Notes: generated from the letters alone by a model not told the origin. Shown: positions 4,430 through 53,381, numbered from the stretch's first letter. The stretch is DNA of 64,000 bases from an uncultured Bacilli bacterium (GCA_963931185.1 OZ006981.1:766859-830858), one strand, 5' to 3'. Translations and numbers: made by a program.

Positions 4430-4870
4430 ATGAAAGTAATATTTTTAAAAGACGTAAAAGGTCAAGGTAAAAAAGGTGAAATTAAAGAGGTAAAAGATGG
4501 CTATGCTCAAAATTATTTGATAAAAAATGGTTATGCCGATAAGCTGACAGAATCTTCATATCAAAAATATTTGAATGACAAAAAAGAAGAACAAGAAGAA
4601 GATATGAAAAATAGAAAAGAAGCAAATGAAACAAAGCTAGCACTAGAAAAAGTTGAATTGATTTTTAAAGTAAAAACCGGAAAAATGGATAAAGTTTTTG
4701 GAAGTGTTAGTTCAAAGCAAATAAAAGAAGACTTAGAAAAATTAGGAATATTTGTTAATAAAAAACAGATTGATATGCAAGAAGGATTATCGACACTTGG
4801 ATATCATAATGTTAATGTTCAATTGTACAAAGATGTTTATGGAGTTGTAAAAGTAAAATTAGAAAAATAG
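4430..4870 (+). CDS. rplI: 50S ribosomal protein L9
   Basis: [31 protein letters not shown] is the canonical L9 N-terminus. Confidence 0.9.
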
Positions 4871-30462: not shown

Positions 30463-30548
30463 TATTTAAAATTTATTAGGCTGTTAAACAGTCTTTTTTA
30501 TTCATATAAAAAAAACATATTTATATAATTAACTAGAGGATGATTTAT

Positions 30549-30806
30549 ATGAATAAACACATAATTAATAGAGTTTATAATGAAGCTATTTATATGTTAA
30601 AAACTAAAAAAACAGTCAGAGAGATAGCTAAAAAATTTAATGTTAGTAAGAGTACTGTTCATAAGGATTTACAAGAAAGACTTTATGATATTGATAAAAA
30701 GTTACATTCAGAAATAGTAGAAATATTCAAAAATCACATAGAAATAAGGCACATAAAAGGTGGTGAATCTACTAGAAAAAGATATTTAAAATTAAAAGAG
30801 GGATGA
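30549..30806 (+). CDS. spoIIID: Stage III sporulation protein D
   Basis: KTKKTVREIAKKFNVSKSTVHKDL HTH region and ...IRHIKGGESTRKRY tail, closely resembling Bacillus SpoIIID. Confidence 0.8.
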   Translation: MNKHIINRVYNEAIYMLKTKKTVREIAKKFNVSKSTVHKDLQERLYDIDKKLHSEIVEIFKNHIEIRHIKGGESTRKRYLKLKEG

Positions 30807-30807
30807 T

Positions 30808-31791
30808 ATGAGAGATATAGGAATAGATTTAGGAACAGCAAATGTTCTAATATATGTTAAAGGAGAAGGCGTTGTAGTTAATGAGCCAACCGTAGTGGCA
30901 ATAGATGCTGAATCAAAACAAGTTTTAGCAGTAGGAAAAGAAGCAAACCAAATGTTAGGCAGAACTCCAGGCAAAGTAAAAGCAATAAAGCCATTAAAAG
31001 ATGGTGTTATTGCTGATTTTGAGTATACTGAAGCAATGCTTAATGACTTAATATTAAGAGTAAAAGGAAAAGGATTATTTTCGAAACCTAGAGTATTAAT
31101 ATGTTGCCCATCGAATATAACTTCTGTTGAAAAAAATGCCATAAAAGAAGCTGCTGAAAGAATTGGTGCTAAAAAAGTATTTATTGAAGAGGAACCAAAA
31201 GTAGCGGCAGTAGGAGCTGGAATGGATATTGAAAAACCTAGTGGAAACATGGTTATTGATATTGGTGGTGGAACAACTGACATAGCAATACTATCATTAG
31301 GAGGAATTGTAAATTCGGCATCTATTAAAATCGCAGGTAATTCATTTGATAATGCAATTGTAGAATATGTAAAAAATAAGTACAAGCTTTTAATAGGCGA
31401 AAGGACTGCCGAAGATATAAAATTAAACATTGGAAATGTATATAATGGTGAAAAAAATAAAAAAATTGAAATTAAAGGAAGAGACTTGTCTACAGGACTA
31501 CCATCAATGATTGAAATAAGTGAAAAGGAAGTTGAAGAATCATTAAAACCACTAGCTCATGAGATAATAAAAGTAGTTAAATCAGTATTAGAAAAAACTC
31601 CACCAGAATTATCAGCAGATATAATTGATAAAGGAATAGTTTTGACTGGTGGAGGTGCTCTTATAAAAGGATTTCCAGAATTGTTCGAAGAAGAATTAAA
31701 AGTTCCTATTTTTATAGCTGAAAGTCCATTAACATGTGTTGCTGAAGGTTGTGGAATAATGCTAGAAAACTTAAATTTAATAGATAGATAA
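30808..31791 (+). CDS. mreB: Rod shape-determining protein MreB/Mbl
   Basis: MRDIGIDLGTANVLIYV N-terminus and an actin-like ATPase fold; 327 aa. Confidence 0.9.
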   Translation: MRDIGIDLGTANVLIYVKGEGVVVNEPTVVAIDAESKQVLAVGKEANQMLGRTPGKVKAIKPLKDGVIADFEYTEAMLNDLILRVKGKGLFSKPRVLICCPSNITSVEKNAIKEAAERIGAKKVFIEEEPKVAAVGAGMDIEKPSGNMVIDIGGGTTDIAILSLGGIVNSASIKIAGNSFDNAIVEYVKNKYKLLIGERTAEDIKLNIGNVYNGEKNKKIEIKGRDLSTGLPSMIEISEKEVEESLKPLAHEIIKVVKSVLEKTPPELSADIIDKGIVLTGGGALIKGFPELFEEELKVPIFIAESPLTCVAEGCGIMLENLNLIDR

Positions 31792-33006: not shown

Positions 33007-33738
33007 ATGATTAATTTTATAATTTGTGATGATAATAAAGAATTTTCAGAAAAAATTAGAAAAATAATTAAAAACTACATGATGAACTTTGACATAGTTG
33101 ATAAATTTTATATGTATGAAGACTATAGTGATAAGTTTAAGTCAGAAATAAAAGAAATCGAAGGGTTTAAATTATATATTTTGGATATTGAAACAAAGTG
33201 CAATTCTGGAATAGATGCTGCTAGATATATAAGAGAAGAATTAGATGATTGGAATTCACTAATTATTTTTTTAACGGCACACAATGAATTAAAGTTTGAA
33301 GCATTAAGCAATAGACTTTATTTGTTGGATTTTATAAATAAATTTGATAATTATGAAAACAAGCTCAAAGAAGATTTAGAAAGAGTAAAGAAAAATTATG
33401 ATAACAGAGAAAAGTGCTTAACCTTTGAGTCAAATAGAGTTATAAAAAGAATAGATTTTAAAAATATTGTTATAATTGAAAAAGAAAAAGATAGCAAAAA
33501 GTGTATAGTAAAAGCAACCTACGGAGATTACGTAATTCATAAAACTTTAAACGAAGTATTTAAACTTTTAGATAAAAGATTTATAAAGACAAGTAGAAGT
33601 AGCATTGTTAATGTAGACCAAATAAGTGAATATGATTATTCAGAAAATAAAATATTGTTTAAAAATGGAATTGTAACCTTTGATATTTCGAGAAATAACA
33701 AAAAGAAGGTGTGCAACAGTGTCAAGTCTTATAGGTAA
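33007..33738 (+). CDS. agrA: AgrA-like response regulator (receiver + LytTR DNA-binding domain)
   Basis: Receiver domain (ICDDN..., YILDIET with phospho-acceptor Asp) plus a C-terminal LytTR-like region. It is adjacent to an AgrC-like kinase. The start is probably ATG 33007 after an AGGTGAAGG RBS. Confidence 0.75.
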   Translation: MINFIICDDNKEFSEKIRKIIKNYMMNFDIVDKFYMYEDYSDKFKSEIKEIEGFKLYILDIETKCNSGIDAARYIREELDDWNSLIIFLTAHNELKFEALSNRLYLLDFINKFDNYENKLKEDLERVKKNYDNREKCLTFESNRVIKRIDFKNIVIIEKEKDSKKCIVKATYGDYVIHKTLNEVFKLLDKRFIKTSRSSIVNVDQISEYDYSENKILFKNGIVTFDISRNNKKKVCNSVKSYR

Positions 33739-35020
33739 TGTAATTGGTTCAATAATTCAAAGTTTAACAGTAGTGCTTTGTGCTAAATCAATTTTATTAT
33801 ACAATAACAGAAAAAAAATGTTGACAATAAATGATTTGCTTTTCCTTATTTTTCTGTTTGTGCCTATTTCTTTAATTTATAGTAGTAATTATAATGTAAT
33901 AAGTCCTATTTTGTTTTTTACAGTAATTATATTTTGCTTGTTTTTTATATATAAAATTTCATTTTTAACATCGTTTTTATTTTCAGGAATCTTTATGATA
34001 ATTTTGGTTTTATCAGATTTAATAGTATCTATAATCTTTGTTGGATTCTTAAGTATTCAAACAATAAGAACAGAAAATTTTTACATAATATTAACAAATT
34101 TATTAGTTGGATTAATAGAGGTCGGGATTTTTTATATAAATGGATTTAAAAACAAAATAGTAGATATAATTTTAGAAACTGCAAAACATAAAAGTTTAGA
34201 ATTAATAACATTTATAATTTTACTAATTTTTGCTTTGAGCATTGGCATTTATATTTTGTTTGAAAATTATTATTTGAATAGAACTTTTATAATTGGAATA
34301 TTAGGAATTGTTATATTTTTAATTTTGTCCATTATATTTTTAAAAGAAAAATATGACAAAAATCTTTTAACAATTAAATATGATCAATTGTTTGAATATG
34401 TGCAGACTTTTGAGGAATGGATGGATAATGAAAATGTAAATATTCATGAATCAAAGAATCAATTAGCTGCATTACGTGCTATAATCAAAAATAATAAAGA
34501 AGCTATTCAATATATTGACAATATAATAAAAGATGAAATTGATTTAGAAAGTAAAAATATTCAAAAATTAAGAAACATTCCCAAAGGAGGATTAAAAGGA
34601 CTTTTATATTATAAAATAATATTTTCCGAGAAAAATAACATAGTTTTGTATATAGATATATCAAATAAAGTCGGAGATAAATTAGCCAAGTTAAATATTG
34701 AAGAAAATAAAATGCTTTGCAGATTGGTTGGGATTTTTTTTGATAACGCTATAGAGGCTGCTAAAGAGTCGGAAAAGAGAATGATTTCATGTGAAATTTA
34801 CAGGAATGATAAAGATATTATAATAACCATATCAAATACTTATGCAGGAAAATTAGAGTTAAACAAAGTAAGTGAAAAAGGATATTCAACCAAAGGGAAA
34901 AATAGAGGTAATGGTCTTTATTTAGCAAATAAAATAGCAAAAAAATCTGATATATTTTTTTTGGAAAACAGGATAATTAATGATTTTTATATTCAAAAAA
35001 TAATAATAAAAAAGATATAA
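33719..35020 (+). CDS. agrC: AgrC-like sensor histidine kinase (polytopic sensor + HATPase_c_5)
   Basis: Six to seven N-terminal TM helices and a C-terminal GHKL ATP-lid (NTYAGK...GKNRGNGLYLANKIA). The track ORF starts at TTG 33680. The likelier start is GTG 33719, preceded by a GAAGG RBS. Confidence 0.7.
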   Translation: MSSLIGNVIGSIIQSLTVVLCAKSILLYNNRKKMLTINDLLFLIFLFVPISLIYSSNYNVISPILFFTVIIFCLFFIYKISFLTSFLFSGIFMIILVLSDLIVSIIFVGFLSIQTIRTENFYIILTNLLVGLIEVGIFYINGFKNKIVDIILETAKHKSLELITFIILLIFALSIGIYILFENYYLNRTFIIGILGIVIFLILSIIFLKEKYDKNLLTIKYDQLFEYVQTFEEWMDNENVNIHESKNQLAALRAIIKNNKEAIQYIDNIIKDEIDLESKNIQKLRNIPKGGLKGLLYYKIIFSEKNNIVLYIDISNKVGDKLAKLNIEENKMLCRLVGIFFDNAIEAAKESEKRMISCEIYRNDKDIIITISNTYAGKLELNKVSEKGYSTKGKNRGNGLYLANKIAKKSDIFFLENRIINDFYIQKIIIKKI

Positions 35021-35467
35021 ATTTATATCTTTTTTATTTATAAGAAAATTATGTTTTTTTTGCACAAATTAAAAAATAATAGTTATTAATTTATTACACA
35101 AAGAATAAATTTTCATATTTTGAGAGACTTTAATTGGAAATGACCTATTACTTTAAATAAAAGTAAATAAATATTAGAATTGAAAGATAGATCATATCAA
35201 AAGTATGAAGAATATAAATAAAACTTAAATGAATTATAATTTATATTTCATATTTTTATTAATGTTTAATAGTAATAGAGTTAATATTAAATAAATATTG
35301 TAATTTTATCCTTTTTTAAAAGAGTGTCTAAGTTTTGCCAATAGTAAAAACATTATGTTTATACGTGCATCTAAAAATTTATTTCATGTTTTTAAACATT
35401 TGTTTAATATTAAAGTTAATTTTTCTATTGTTAACTTTGTCTTTAATTTTAATAAAATCTGTATTAT

Positions 35468-35552
35468 TTTTAATACATATAATAATAAATATATTATAAA
35501 TTAAAATAAACCAGCCTCAAAGAGGTTGGCAAATAAAATTGATTTTGTTATT
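35468..35552. repeat. Hairpin repeat element, copy 2 (ACCAGCCTCAAAGAGGTTGGC stem-loop). It acts as a bidirectional terminator between the convergent agrC and agrD.
   Basis: About 80% identical over roughly 70 bp to 478..549. A/T runs flank the hairpin on both sides. Confidence 0.55.
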
Positions 35553-35555
35553 TTT

Positions 35556-35678
35556 CTAGTCTATTAAATTTTTTGGCGCTCTTGGTTCATCTACTAAAAG
35601 TACAATGCATCCCATACTTGCAGCACCACTTGCTAATACAGCAATTGCAGTTAATAAGCTTGCTACTTTTTTCTTCAT
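35556..35678 (-). CDS. agrD: AgrD-like autoinducing-peptide precursor (40 aa). It is absent from the supplied ORF track.
   Basis: Manual minus-strand translation: MKKKVASLLTAIAVLASGAASMGCIVLLVDEPRAPKNLID. It has an amphipathic N-leader, a single Cys in a hydrophobic core, and a charged DEP..PK.L tail resembling the S. aureus DEVEVPKEL recognition motif. A GGAGG RBS sits 8 nt upstream, and the gene is immediately 3' of agrB. Confidence 0.7.
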   Translation of the reverse strand: MKKKVASLLTAIAVLASGAASMGCIVLLVDEPRAPKNLID

Positions 35679-35726
35679 ACTATACCTCCTATAATAATAA
35701 TATATATTAAATATCAAAATTGATAT

Positions 35727-36338
35727 TTAATCAGAATTAATGTAATTTTTATAATTATTATATGGCTGCCTAGTTGCCATATATATAAAAGGATTTACCA
35801 TGATTGATTGAATAACAATTGATAATAATAAAATTGATGAAATTTTATAATCTACATAAGGAATAATAATCGAATAGATAATGGTAACAAGAATAATTAA
35901 ACATTTTCTAATCATTTTTTTCTTTTTATTAATCATAGGTCTTTTTTTTGTATCGCTAGGTGCAAATAATAAAAAATTAAATATACATAAACTTATTAAT
36001 AACCATTTATAATTAAATATTAATAGTTGTTTAGAAATTAAAAACGGTAAAATGAAAAATAAAGTTATGGAAATAACTAAACATTCGGTACTATTTCTAG
36101 CATGATACCCAAATCCAAAAAAACGTAAAAAATTATAAAATAACAATAATAATAAAATTTCATATAATATATTAAAAATAAAACCTAATAGCAAAATGAC
36201 AAATAATTTAGTAACTGTTAAATAAATGCCTTCAATACCATACTTGATTTTATCTAATTCATCTTTAGAAAAAGCAGGGTTGTTTTTTTTAACCACATTC
36301 ATATAGTTATTTAAAAATAAATCTTTCATATACTTCAC
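35727..36338 (-). CDS. agrB: AgrB-like membrane peptidase that processes AgrD
   Basis: About 200 aa with 5-6 TM segments. The conserved His...Cys catalytic pair is present (YHARNSTEC, H to C spacing +7 as in S. aureus HAPSSFWC). Confidence 0.7.
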   Translation of the reverse strand: MKYMKDLFLNNYMNVVKKNNPAFSKDELDKIKYGIEGIYLTVTKLFVILLLGFIFNILYEILLLLLFYNFLRFFGFGYHARNSTECLVISITLFFILPFLISKQLLIFNYKWLLISLCIFNFLLFAPSDTKKRPMINKKKKMIRKCLIILVTIIYSIIIPYVDYKISSILLLSIVIQSIMVNPFIYMATRQPYNNYKNYINSD

Positions 36339-36604
36339 TTCCTAATTTATACATTTAAAAGTATAAAATAAAAAACACAGTGTTAAACAAATTAAACTTC
36401 AAATGTAATAATTAATGCATTTAATACAAAAAAATAATTTAAATATATTTAAAAATTCCAAAAAAGGAAATAAAGTGCCATTTAAAGGAATAAATTATCA
36501 TAATAGAAAATTTGATGTTACTATTAAGATGCGCAAAATTGTAGTAGCCATGGTAGGAAGTGTAATATGTGAAAATAACAAAAGAATGTGAGGTGCCAGT
36601 AGAT

Positions 36605-48160: not shown

Positions 48161-48252
48161 ATATGCACATCAAAAAAGTGCAAATGATCTTTGAAAACTG
48201 AGCAAAACGTCAATTACATTAAGTCAGGAAAAAAATAAAATAAATCAAACTT

Positions 48253-49822
<1,570 letters not shown>

Positions 49823-50051
49823 AAGGAGTAAAATTCCTGTATCTGACTTAATAAACGTTTTGCTTGGTTTTGAGAGATCATTTGATTTCTCAAATAGTTC
49901 TTTGAAAACTAGATAATGTGTGTTATTTGCTTTACAACGAGCAAAGTAAATAACAATATAATTGTATTTATTAAGTGTACAATTATTAAGATCTCATCAA
50001 ATTAGGATATATAAATATCAAACAAATGGTGGTTAAATTGCTAAGGGCGCA

Positions 50052-52950
<2,899 letters not shown>

Positions 52951-53017
52951 TTTGTTTTTTTGATTAGATCATGCACATTATCTAAGTTTTCAGAGAACTA
53001 TTGTTAATTGTTATGTT

Positions 53018-53122
53018 TATTGGTGACAATAGCTAAGAGGATACACCTGTTCCCATCCCGAACACAGAAGTTAAGCTCTTAAACGCCGACGATAGTGTAT
53101 GCGAAAATAGGTAGTTGCCAAT
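53018..53122 (+). rRNA. rrf: 5S ribosomal RNA (short, about 104 nt)
   Basis: ...GGTGACAATAGCTAAGAGGATACACCTGTTCCCATCCCGAACACAGAAGTTAAGCTCTTAAACGCCGA... The 3' end is approximate. Confidence 0.8.
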
Positions 53123-53381
53123 ATTTTTTTTTGCAAAAAAATTCATTAATATATGAATTTTTTTTATTTATAAGGAAGTGCGTTTGAGCATACAAATAAA
53201 AAAATGTGATAGAAGTTAAATTATCACGCAATAAATAAACCTACTTATTATGAGAGGTTTTAATTGGAAATGATAGGCCATCACAATAAGGGCATTTTAT
53301 CTCAAAAGACTTTTTAGCATTAATAAATTTTAAAAAAACAAGACGTTCTTAAAAATTAGTAGATAATAAAAACATTTTATA

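Follow-up and report, generated by a model that had tools for sequence, protein, structure and literature searches.

A small gene downstream of agrB in an uncultured gut Bacilli bacterium is predicted to encode an AgrD-type signal peptide precursor of the six-membered-ring subclass

The main finding of this work was the recognition of a small open reading frame (ORF), located directly after agrB in the genome of an uncultured gut Bacilli bacterium, as a real gene that is predicted to encode an AgrD protein, from which a cyclic peptide for quorum sensing would be made. The DNA analyzed is a single stretch of 64,000 nucleotides, hereafter the window, and positions are counted from its first letter. 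The ORF, designated agrD, occupies positions 35556-35678 of the minus strand, with the ATG at 35678-35676 and the TAG at 35558-35556; it consists of 40 codons and a stop, and its translation is exactly MKKKVASLLTAIAVLASGAASMGCIVLLVDEPRAPKNLID. A Shine-Dalgarno sequence GGAGG (35685-35689, minus strand) is found 6 nt upstream of the ATG, and the stop codon of agrB, on the same strand, ends at 35727, which leaves a gap of 48 nt between the two genes. Coordinates and translation reproduce those of a first-pass annotation of the window, in which a 40-aa ORF with a GGAGG ribosome-binding site had been placed 3' of agrB on the minus strand. The ORF had been described there as unannotated, a description that holds for the ORF track supplied with the window but not for the public gene sets, where the exact 40-aa peptide is the product of a called, nameless gene on 59 contigs, the longest of 1.32 Mb (NCBI, ENA and Logan assemblies). 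The gene is documented by direct reading, by public gene sets and by orthologous ORFs in related genomes; in the ORF listing, its frame is also given as an ORF of 53 aa starting from an upstream TTG. At 26 nt 3' of the agrD stop codon, a terminator-like hairpin is found on the minus strand at 35502-35530 (stem-loop at 35510-35530, then UUUAUUUU). Its RNA fold of -9.1 kcal/mol has a z-score of just -1.23, making it weakly terminator-like, and a strict scan for an intrinsic terminator after agrD called none.

The first-pass annotation had identified the peptide as an AgrD propeptide, and this identity is strengthened by synteny, by conservation throughout a family, by HMM and profile matches and by the presence of a cognate kinase/regulator pair in convergent orientation. 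The adjacent agrB gene (35727-36329, minus strand) is predicted to encode a membrane peptidase/cyclase of 200 aa with several hydrophobic stretches, and its product matches the Pfam family AgrB (PF04647) with an E-value of 2.2e-30 and 105.8 bits, the cut-off being 23. Residues His76 and Cys83 of this protein are invariant among 21 diverse homologues, with identity down to 31%, and judging by their spacing we take them to be the counterparts of His77 and Cys84 of S. aureus AgrB, which Qiu and colleagues are said to have found catalytic in 2005. On the plus strand, and convergent with agrBD, lies a gene for an AgrC-like histidine kinase of 433 aa (33719-35020), composed of a polytopic N-terminal sensor of ~210 aa and a GHKL domain (Pfam HATPase_c_5, 1.8e-11; NCBIfam AgrC, 2.7e-19, under the equivalog cut-off). 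The start of the kinase gene is overlapped by a gene on the same strand for an AgrA-like LytTR response regulator of 243 aa (33007-33738), which matches Pfam LytTR (1.9e-12) and NCBIfam AgrA (1.4e-11, under the cut-off) and has a sub-threshold receiver domain. Convergent placement is kept among related loci for the kinase in 71 and for the regulator in 67, and the two predicted proteins would complete the agr system. One flank of the locus carries csp, hpf and secA, and the opposite flank a glycosyltransferase-4 family gene with mreB and spoIIID; these flanks are housekeeping genes, and the agr locus is chromosomal, not mobile. A search of the PDB found no relative of AgrB or of the agrD peptide family.

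Regarding the regulation of these genes, no LytTR-type direct repeats were found upstream of agrB at 36300-36600, and therefore an autoinduction loop is an assumption. An alignment of five agrB promoters likewise gave no clear conserved box, and a search of ~75 agrB promoters for 10-mer repeats at a spacing of 15-29 nt returned a handful of matches, none of them in the window. Other features of the window were also observed. The SpoIIID-family gene beside mreB lies at about 30500-30810 (corresponding to L001:10873-11130) in what is apparently a genome-reduced RF39-like organism; to our knowledge, the RF39-like lineage is not known for sporulation. The window further contains a complete 16S-23S-5S rRNA operon (48252-53123) and a T-box leader (1471-1709).

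Conservation in related genomes, the check proposed in the first-pass annotation, was assessed by scanning one genome per species for relatives of AgrB, which yielded 80 loci, all from uncultured gut MAGs named 'Bacilli', 'Tenericutes' or 'Mycoplasma sp. CAG', with human, rabbit, chicken, mouse and ruminant hosts. Five of these loci stop within 129 nt after agrB and were left out. A small co-oriented ORF is present 3' of agrB in each of the 75 informative loci, at AgrB identities as low as 36%, and no case of loss beside agrB was seen. The start codons are ATG in 64 loci, TTG in seven and GTG in four, and the position of the start is fixed, mostly 23 residues ahead of the cysteine, even where TTG or GTG is used; an SD-like motif precedes the orthologous start in 72 of 76 loci. 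The encoded peptides share one pattern, consisting of a conserved leader, the motif A-S-x-G-C, five hypervariable hydrophobic residues and [DE]-E-P. Counted over 76 loci, Ala at -4, Ser at -3 and Gly at -1 each occur in 68, position -2 is variable, and the Cys occurs in 75; next, the segment after the core begins with Asp or Glu in 72 and continues with Glu and Pro in all 76. Over core positions +1 to +5 the entropy is 1.75-2.85 bits, whereas it stays at 0-1 bit for -4, -3, -1, the Cys and the first three residues after the core (F1-F3). The 76 loci contain 73 distinct cores, with almost purely hydrophobic residues, among which Trp is the commonest at +2 (47/76). Some members carry additional cysteines, either a second one in the core (10/76, e.g., CVWFCA) or one near the C terminus (18/76, ..SLCD). 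In a single MAG (L060, about 4650-4765), Thr takes the place of the ring Cys (..STF-TWWLLA-DEPECPKSLLK), which would imply a lactone through this Thr, or a nearby Ser, if it is not a sequencing or assembly error.

Profile comparisons lead to the same assignment at the level of the family. The window peptide alone gave no match to the Pfam AgrD model (PF05931) and reached an E-value of 0.0069 and 16.5 bits with TIGR04223, whose curated cut-off is 19 bits. Among 71 family members, TIGR04223 matched 51 (best E-value 8.3e-9) and PF05931 matched seven (best 2.1e-6). Comparison of the family profile with a profile of characterized AgrDs by hhalign gave a probability of 95.8% and an E-value of 6.9e-9, with the C-terminal segments anchoring the alignment; the set of known AgrDs that was aligned includes precursor sequences of staphylococci, Listeria, C. 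perfringens and C. difficile. In a large protein collection, a profile search retrieved 1,464 clusters (90% identity), and the 120 among the matches listed are all nameless. A search of full-text literature for the leader and follower motifs of the family found nothing. Taken by its sequence, the window peptide is a further member of the AgrD family, predicted to fall within the already known subclass with six-membered rings.

The predicted core extends from Cys24 to Val29 (CIVLLV; 35592-35609, minus strand) and contains the ring-forming cysteine and five hypervariable hydrophobic residues, the boundary of the ring being set by analogy. The remaining segment, DEPRAPKNLID with the stop codon (35556-35591, minus strand), is the predicted follower, where AgrB would recognize and cleave the precursor. 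The first-pass annotation had considered the single ring cysteine and the acidic, proline-containing DEP..PK tail as AgrD-like, and indeed the tail can be aligned to the DEV/DEP/YEP..P.EL followers that known AgrDs carry. In characterized AgrDs, the end of the ring abuts the follower (S. aureus CDFIM/DEV and CSSLF/DEP, Listeria CFMFV/YEP, where the slash marks the end of the ring). In the present family, the distance from Cys to [DE]EP is constant at five residues, and never four, in all 76 loci, and the spacing C-x5-[DE]EP recurs in 122 of 124 further short family peptides; in the hhalign alignment the followers are in register and the family Cys stands one position earlier than that of S. 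aureus. The one characterized precursor with the spacing C-x5-[Y/D/E]EP is the AgrD of C. acetobutylicum (GKCVLVTL/YEPKMPEEL). In C. acetobutylicum the AIP forms a six-membered macrocycle that lacks any N-terminal extension; it was detected by HRMS and proved to be a lactam (PMC8251862; PMC10301443; PMC12312760, Table 1), and the synthetic R6T0 peptide is active (PMC10301443; PMC8251862). The earlier annotation had left both a five- and a six-residue ring open. Because the constant spacing of the family matches that of CVLVTL/YEP, CIVLLV is favored over CIVLL, and the same preference follows from core position +5, which is hydrophobic and, with 2.85 bits over 76 loci, varies as much as the rest of the ring does. 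Therefore, by analogy, a core ring of the six residues CIVLLV is quite likely.

A cut by AgrB one residue earlier would leave Val29 in the follower of an otherwise typical AgrD and give the five-membered ring CIVLL, the other option of the first-pass annotation. Rings of this size are by far the commonest among the characterized AIPs, whose sequences are compiled in Table 1 of PMC12312760. Nevertheless, this outcome is unlikely: known rings end right before the follower motif [DYH][EQ][PV], whereas here five residues always separate Cys from [DE]EP, the characterized precursor with equal spacing makes a six-membered ring, and position +5 is hypervariable as in a ring, unlike the conserved follower.

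The leader (residues 1-23; 35610-35678, minus strand) opens with MKKK as its n-region, continues as a hydrophobic stretch free of charges and ends, directly before Cys, in the conserved motif A(-4) S(-3) x(-2) G(-1). It had been called amphipathic, a description that does not fit, since its hydrophobic moment is 0.27, as compared with 0.49 for the S. aureus leader, and MKKK is followed by 18 uncharged residues in the manner of a signal peptide. The leader looks like a secretion signal with a lipobox-like end. The A-S-x-G-C end agrees with a loose PROSITE-type lipobox rule in 69 of 76 loci, including the window peptide, and with the strict Gram-positive lipobox (G+LPPv2) in two of 76, the latter being rare because position -3 is a conserved Ser instead of Leu; small residues at -3 and -1, as at a signal peptidase I site, occur in 72 of 76. 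For these counts, the PROSITE-type and G+LPPv2 patterns and the -3/-1 rule were used in their usual form. Since the leader is signal-peptide-like and its end lipobox-like, a cleavage directly before Cys24 is plausible, by analogy, and the resulting tail-less peptide would be able to become a lactam. For the exocyclic tail of 2-4 residues suggested in the first-pass annotation, nothing specific was found, and a tail-less product or one with an MG tail is likelier. The clostridial AIPs examined in PMC8251862 were all tail-less and all rearranged to lactams, and by this analogy the most likely product is a tail-less CIVLLV that would rearrange to cyclo(CIVLLV), with [M+H]+ 641.4055, the alternative being MG-CIVLLV (829.4674).

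As the loose lipobox rule applies, another fate of Cys24 is conceivable, in which the leader is a true signal for signal peptidase II (SPII): Lgt would modify Cys24 with diacylglyceryl, Lsp would cut before it, and a short membrane-anchored lipopeptide would be formed instead of, or alongside, a diffusible AIP. Besides the agreement of the window peptide and most of its relatives with the PROSITE-type rule, several relatives weakly match the lipoprotein-signal models LP_plasma, spiralin_LP and LPAM_1, and predicted SPII signals have been described for some AIP precursors in a study that does not settle what becomes of those with a single Cys (PMC13056109). However, we consider this fate very improbable. 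The strict lipobox is nearly absent, with Ser at -3; the sole Cys is needed for the thiolactone; agrB and a cognate kinase invariably accompany the ORF; and A-S-x-G/C fits signal peptidase I equally well (72/76). Moreover, the sequence from Cys24 to Asp40 (about 16 residues, 11 of them follower) corresponds to an AgrD core plus follower and contains no protein domain. A small lipoprotein was rejected on account of the lack of a mature protein moiety after Cys24, the strict lipobox count of 2/76 and the coupling to agrB and kinase. A related idea gives Cys24 both roles, as the lipobox Cys of a functional SPII signal and as the ring Cys for AgrB, with a diffusible six-ring cyclopeptide and a cell-bound lipopeptide made by Lgt/Lsp as competing fates. 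Such a dual role is a long shot; if true, it would hold across more than 1,400 peptide clusters of uncultured genome-reduced gut Bacilli and would be the single-Cys case left unresolved in PMC13056109.

The 40-codon frame is by itself weak evidence for a gene, because base composition alone gives a probability of ~0.017 for an open frame of this length at this site, but a short frame open by chance in the 3' region of agrB, or an untranslated portion of the agrB mRNA, is effectively refuted by the comparative data (equivalents in 75 of 75 informative relatives down to 36% AgrB identity, a fixed start with SD, mostly synonymous leader substitutions and AgrD homology at profile level) and has practically no probability left.

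We return to the reading of the ORF as agrD, the precursor of an agr-type AIP whose six-residue ring is made by AgrB, whose leader is cut off and which is sensed by the convergent kinase; taken as a whole, this scheme is likely to be correct. The sequences themselves show the ORF with its conservation, its place in the AgrD family, the constant spacing, the neighboring genes and the divergence of the alleles; from these we infer the cleavage sites, both by analogy, as well as cyclization, rearrangement, signaling and autoinduction. In this scheme, agrB and agrD would be co-transcribed, and the signal-peptide-like leader (MKKK and 18 uncharged residues) would set AgrD in the membrane. AgrB, through His76/Cys83, would recognize the DEP..PK follower, cut between Val29 and Asp30, and link the carbonyl of Val29 to the thiol of Cys24, giving the six-residue thiolactone CIVLLV. 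The leader would then be removed, the likeliest cut being right before Cys24 at S-x-G/C, in keeping with the -3/-1 rule for signal peptidase I, and the tail-less peptide would undergo a spontaneous S-to-N acyl shift to the homodetic cyclo(CIVLLV), [M+H]+ 641.4055. A leader cut after A-A-S could alternatively give MG-CIVLLV. The peptide would finally be sensed by the AgrC-like kinase (33719-35020) and the signal passed to the LytTR regulator (33007-33738).

Characterized agr systems provide parallels for most parts of this locus. The closest spacing is that of C. acetobutylicum AgrD (CA_C0079; AIP CVLVTL, R6T0), in which Cys-x5-[Y/D/E]-E-P-x-x-P is identical and agrBD and the kinase/regulator genes are likewise separate transcription units; its macrocycle, detected by MS, is six-membered and tail-less, as is predicted for the one proposed here. 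Unlike the signal-peptide-like leader of the window agrD, that of C. acetobutylicum is a long one with a high charge content (10 charged residues), and the follower starts with YEP there and with DEP here. In the window the two units converge, with the regulator gene placed ahead of the kinase gene. A LanM-like gene (homologue of CA_C0082) follows the clostridial six-ring agr cluster, a reported association and not a requirement (PMC10301443), whereas no such gene is present among the neighbors of the window locus. With respect to the leader, the nearest likeness is to C. perfringens AgrD, which is signal-peptide-like as well and whose AIP, CLWFT, lacks an exocyclic tail; it differs by a five-membered ring, an HQP follower and the absence of adjacent agrCA, only agrBD being present (PMC12312760). 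At the level of the product, which is the only level compared, Rc-AIP1 of Ruminiclostridium cellulolyticum, cyclo(CWFWSY), is six-residue, Cys-first, tail-less and hydrophobic like the product predicted here, although it comes from another organism and another precursor; it is Trp-rich, as compared with Trp at +2 in 47 of 76 members here, its thiolactone rearranges to a lactam, and sporulation is under its control (PMC8251862). S. aureus groups I-IV share the DEP..P..EL follower (AgrD-II, ..CSSLF/DEPKVPAEL) and the His/Cys spacing of AgrB, and they differ by a five-membered ring with exocyclic tail, an amphipathic leader and a single agrBDCA operon with RNAIII. Returning to the leader of C. 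perfringens AgrD, the precursor begins with MKK and a hydrophobic stretch and has small residues right before Cys (..ATSA/C).

Within the species, a hypervariable agr cassette (33700-36490) was recognized, which contains the agrB promoter, agrB, agrD and the whole kinase gene, with DNA of ~100% identity on both sides. When the window was compared with a second contig of the same species (L083), csp, hpf and secA were 100% identical at the DNA level, and the regulator, the GT4-family gene and mreB about 94-100%, mostly 98-100%. Sliding identity dropped abruptly between about 36,490 and 33,700, where agrB promoter, agrB and agrD are 77-89% identical and the kinase gene 52-82%. Protein identities were 82% for AgrB, 37% for the kinase sensor, 70% for the kinase domain and 98% for the regulator, and the core after Cys is IVLLV in the window and MIFLI in L083. 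Between alleles of one species, leader changes are mostly synonymous, and four of the five core codons alter the amino acid. A third sequence (L089) is 99.4% identical to the window over 4.4 kb of DNA, agrB included (99% aa), and this identity is lost precisely from base three of the Cys24 codon onwards (codon at 35607-35609; L089:5433-5435), where the core is VIILM. Such a break is suggestive of a recombination junction between leader and core. Downstream of the agrD with this VIILM allele, a transposase-like ORF (L089:5715-6338, minus strand) occupies the place where the kinase is expected, and several metagenomic contigs (L085-L088) stop no more than about 250 nt from agrD, as a repeat or heterogeneity between strains at this point could explain. 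The stop codons of agrD and kinase are separated in the window by an allele-specific spacer of 535 nt (35021-35555) with 15.7% GC, whose counterpart in L083 has just 22 nt and which L004 also lacks; the spacer gave no Rfam match and no meaningful repeats elsewhere. As read from these sequences, the divergence is that of the staphylococcal agr specificity groups, for which PMC8919982 and PMC12312760 describe a hypervariable agrB-agrD-agrC segment in a conserved background, with the difference that in the present species the variable segment takes in the complete agrB gene with its promoter as well as the entire kinase gene. Since agrB, agrD and kinase thus make up a hypervariable cassette that exists in different alleles, pherotypes with mutual specificity are probably determined by it within the species.

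The host belongs to the uncultured, low-GC (27%) gut Bacilli, and its nearest named relatives are MAGs of the order RF39. Among the relatives that bear a Candidatus genus name are Ca. Faecimonas and Ca. Faecenecus, whose AgrB is about 40% identical; both are assigned to RF39 / CAG-611 (PMC8035907). In the literature searched, no paper on cell-cell signaling in the RF39-like lineage was found, and none of the matches listed concerned RF39 with agr. The lineage is new ground; AIP families of the gut microbiome, however, have already been mined in bulk (PMC11953309).

An agrD beside agrB is to be expected, and what this work adds is a uniform six-ring family, a lipobox-like leader and a pherotype cassette within a species. 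A concrete signal, CIVLLV as thiolactone or cyclopeptide ([M+H]+ 641.4055), is predicted for an uncultured, genome-reduced gut lineage, and the large family to which it belongs would, judged by its spacing, belong throughout to the six-ring type, which is the rarer one. The window peptide escapes the curated AgrD models (16.5 against 19 bits), and the family profile built here could give the family a name. The same family supplies many natural single-Cys cases that bear on the handling of lipobox-like AgrD leaders by signal peptidase I as opposed to signal peptidase II. Finally, the pherotype cassettes within one species suggest strain-level signal interference among gut commensals.
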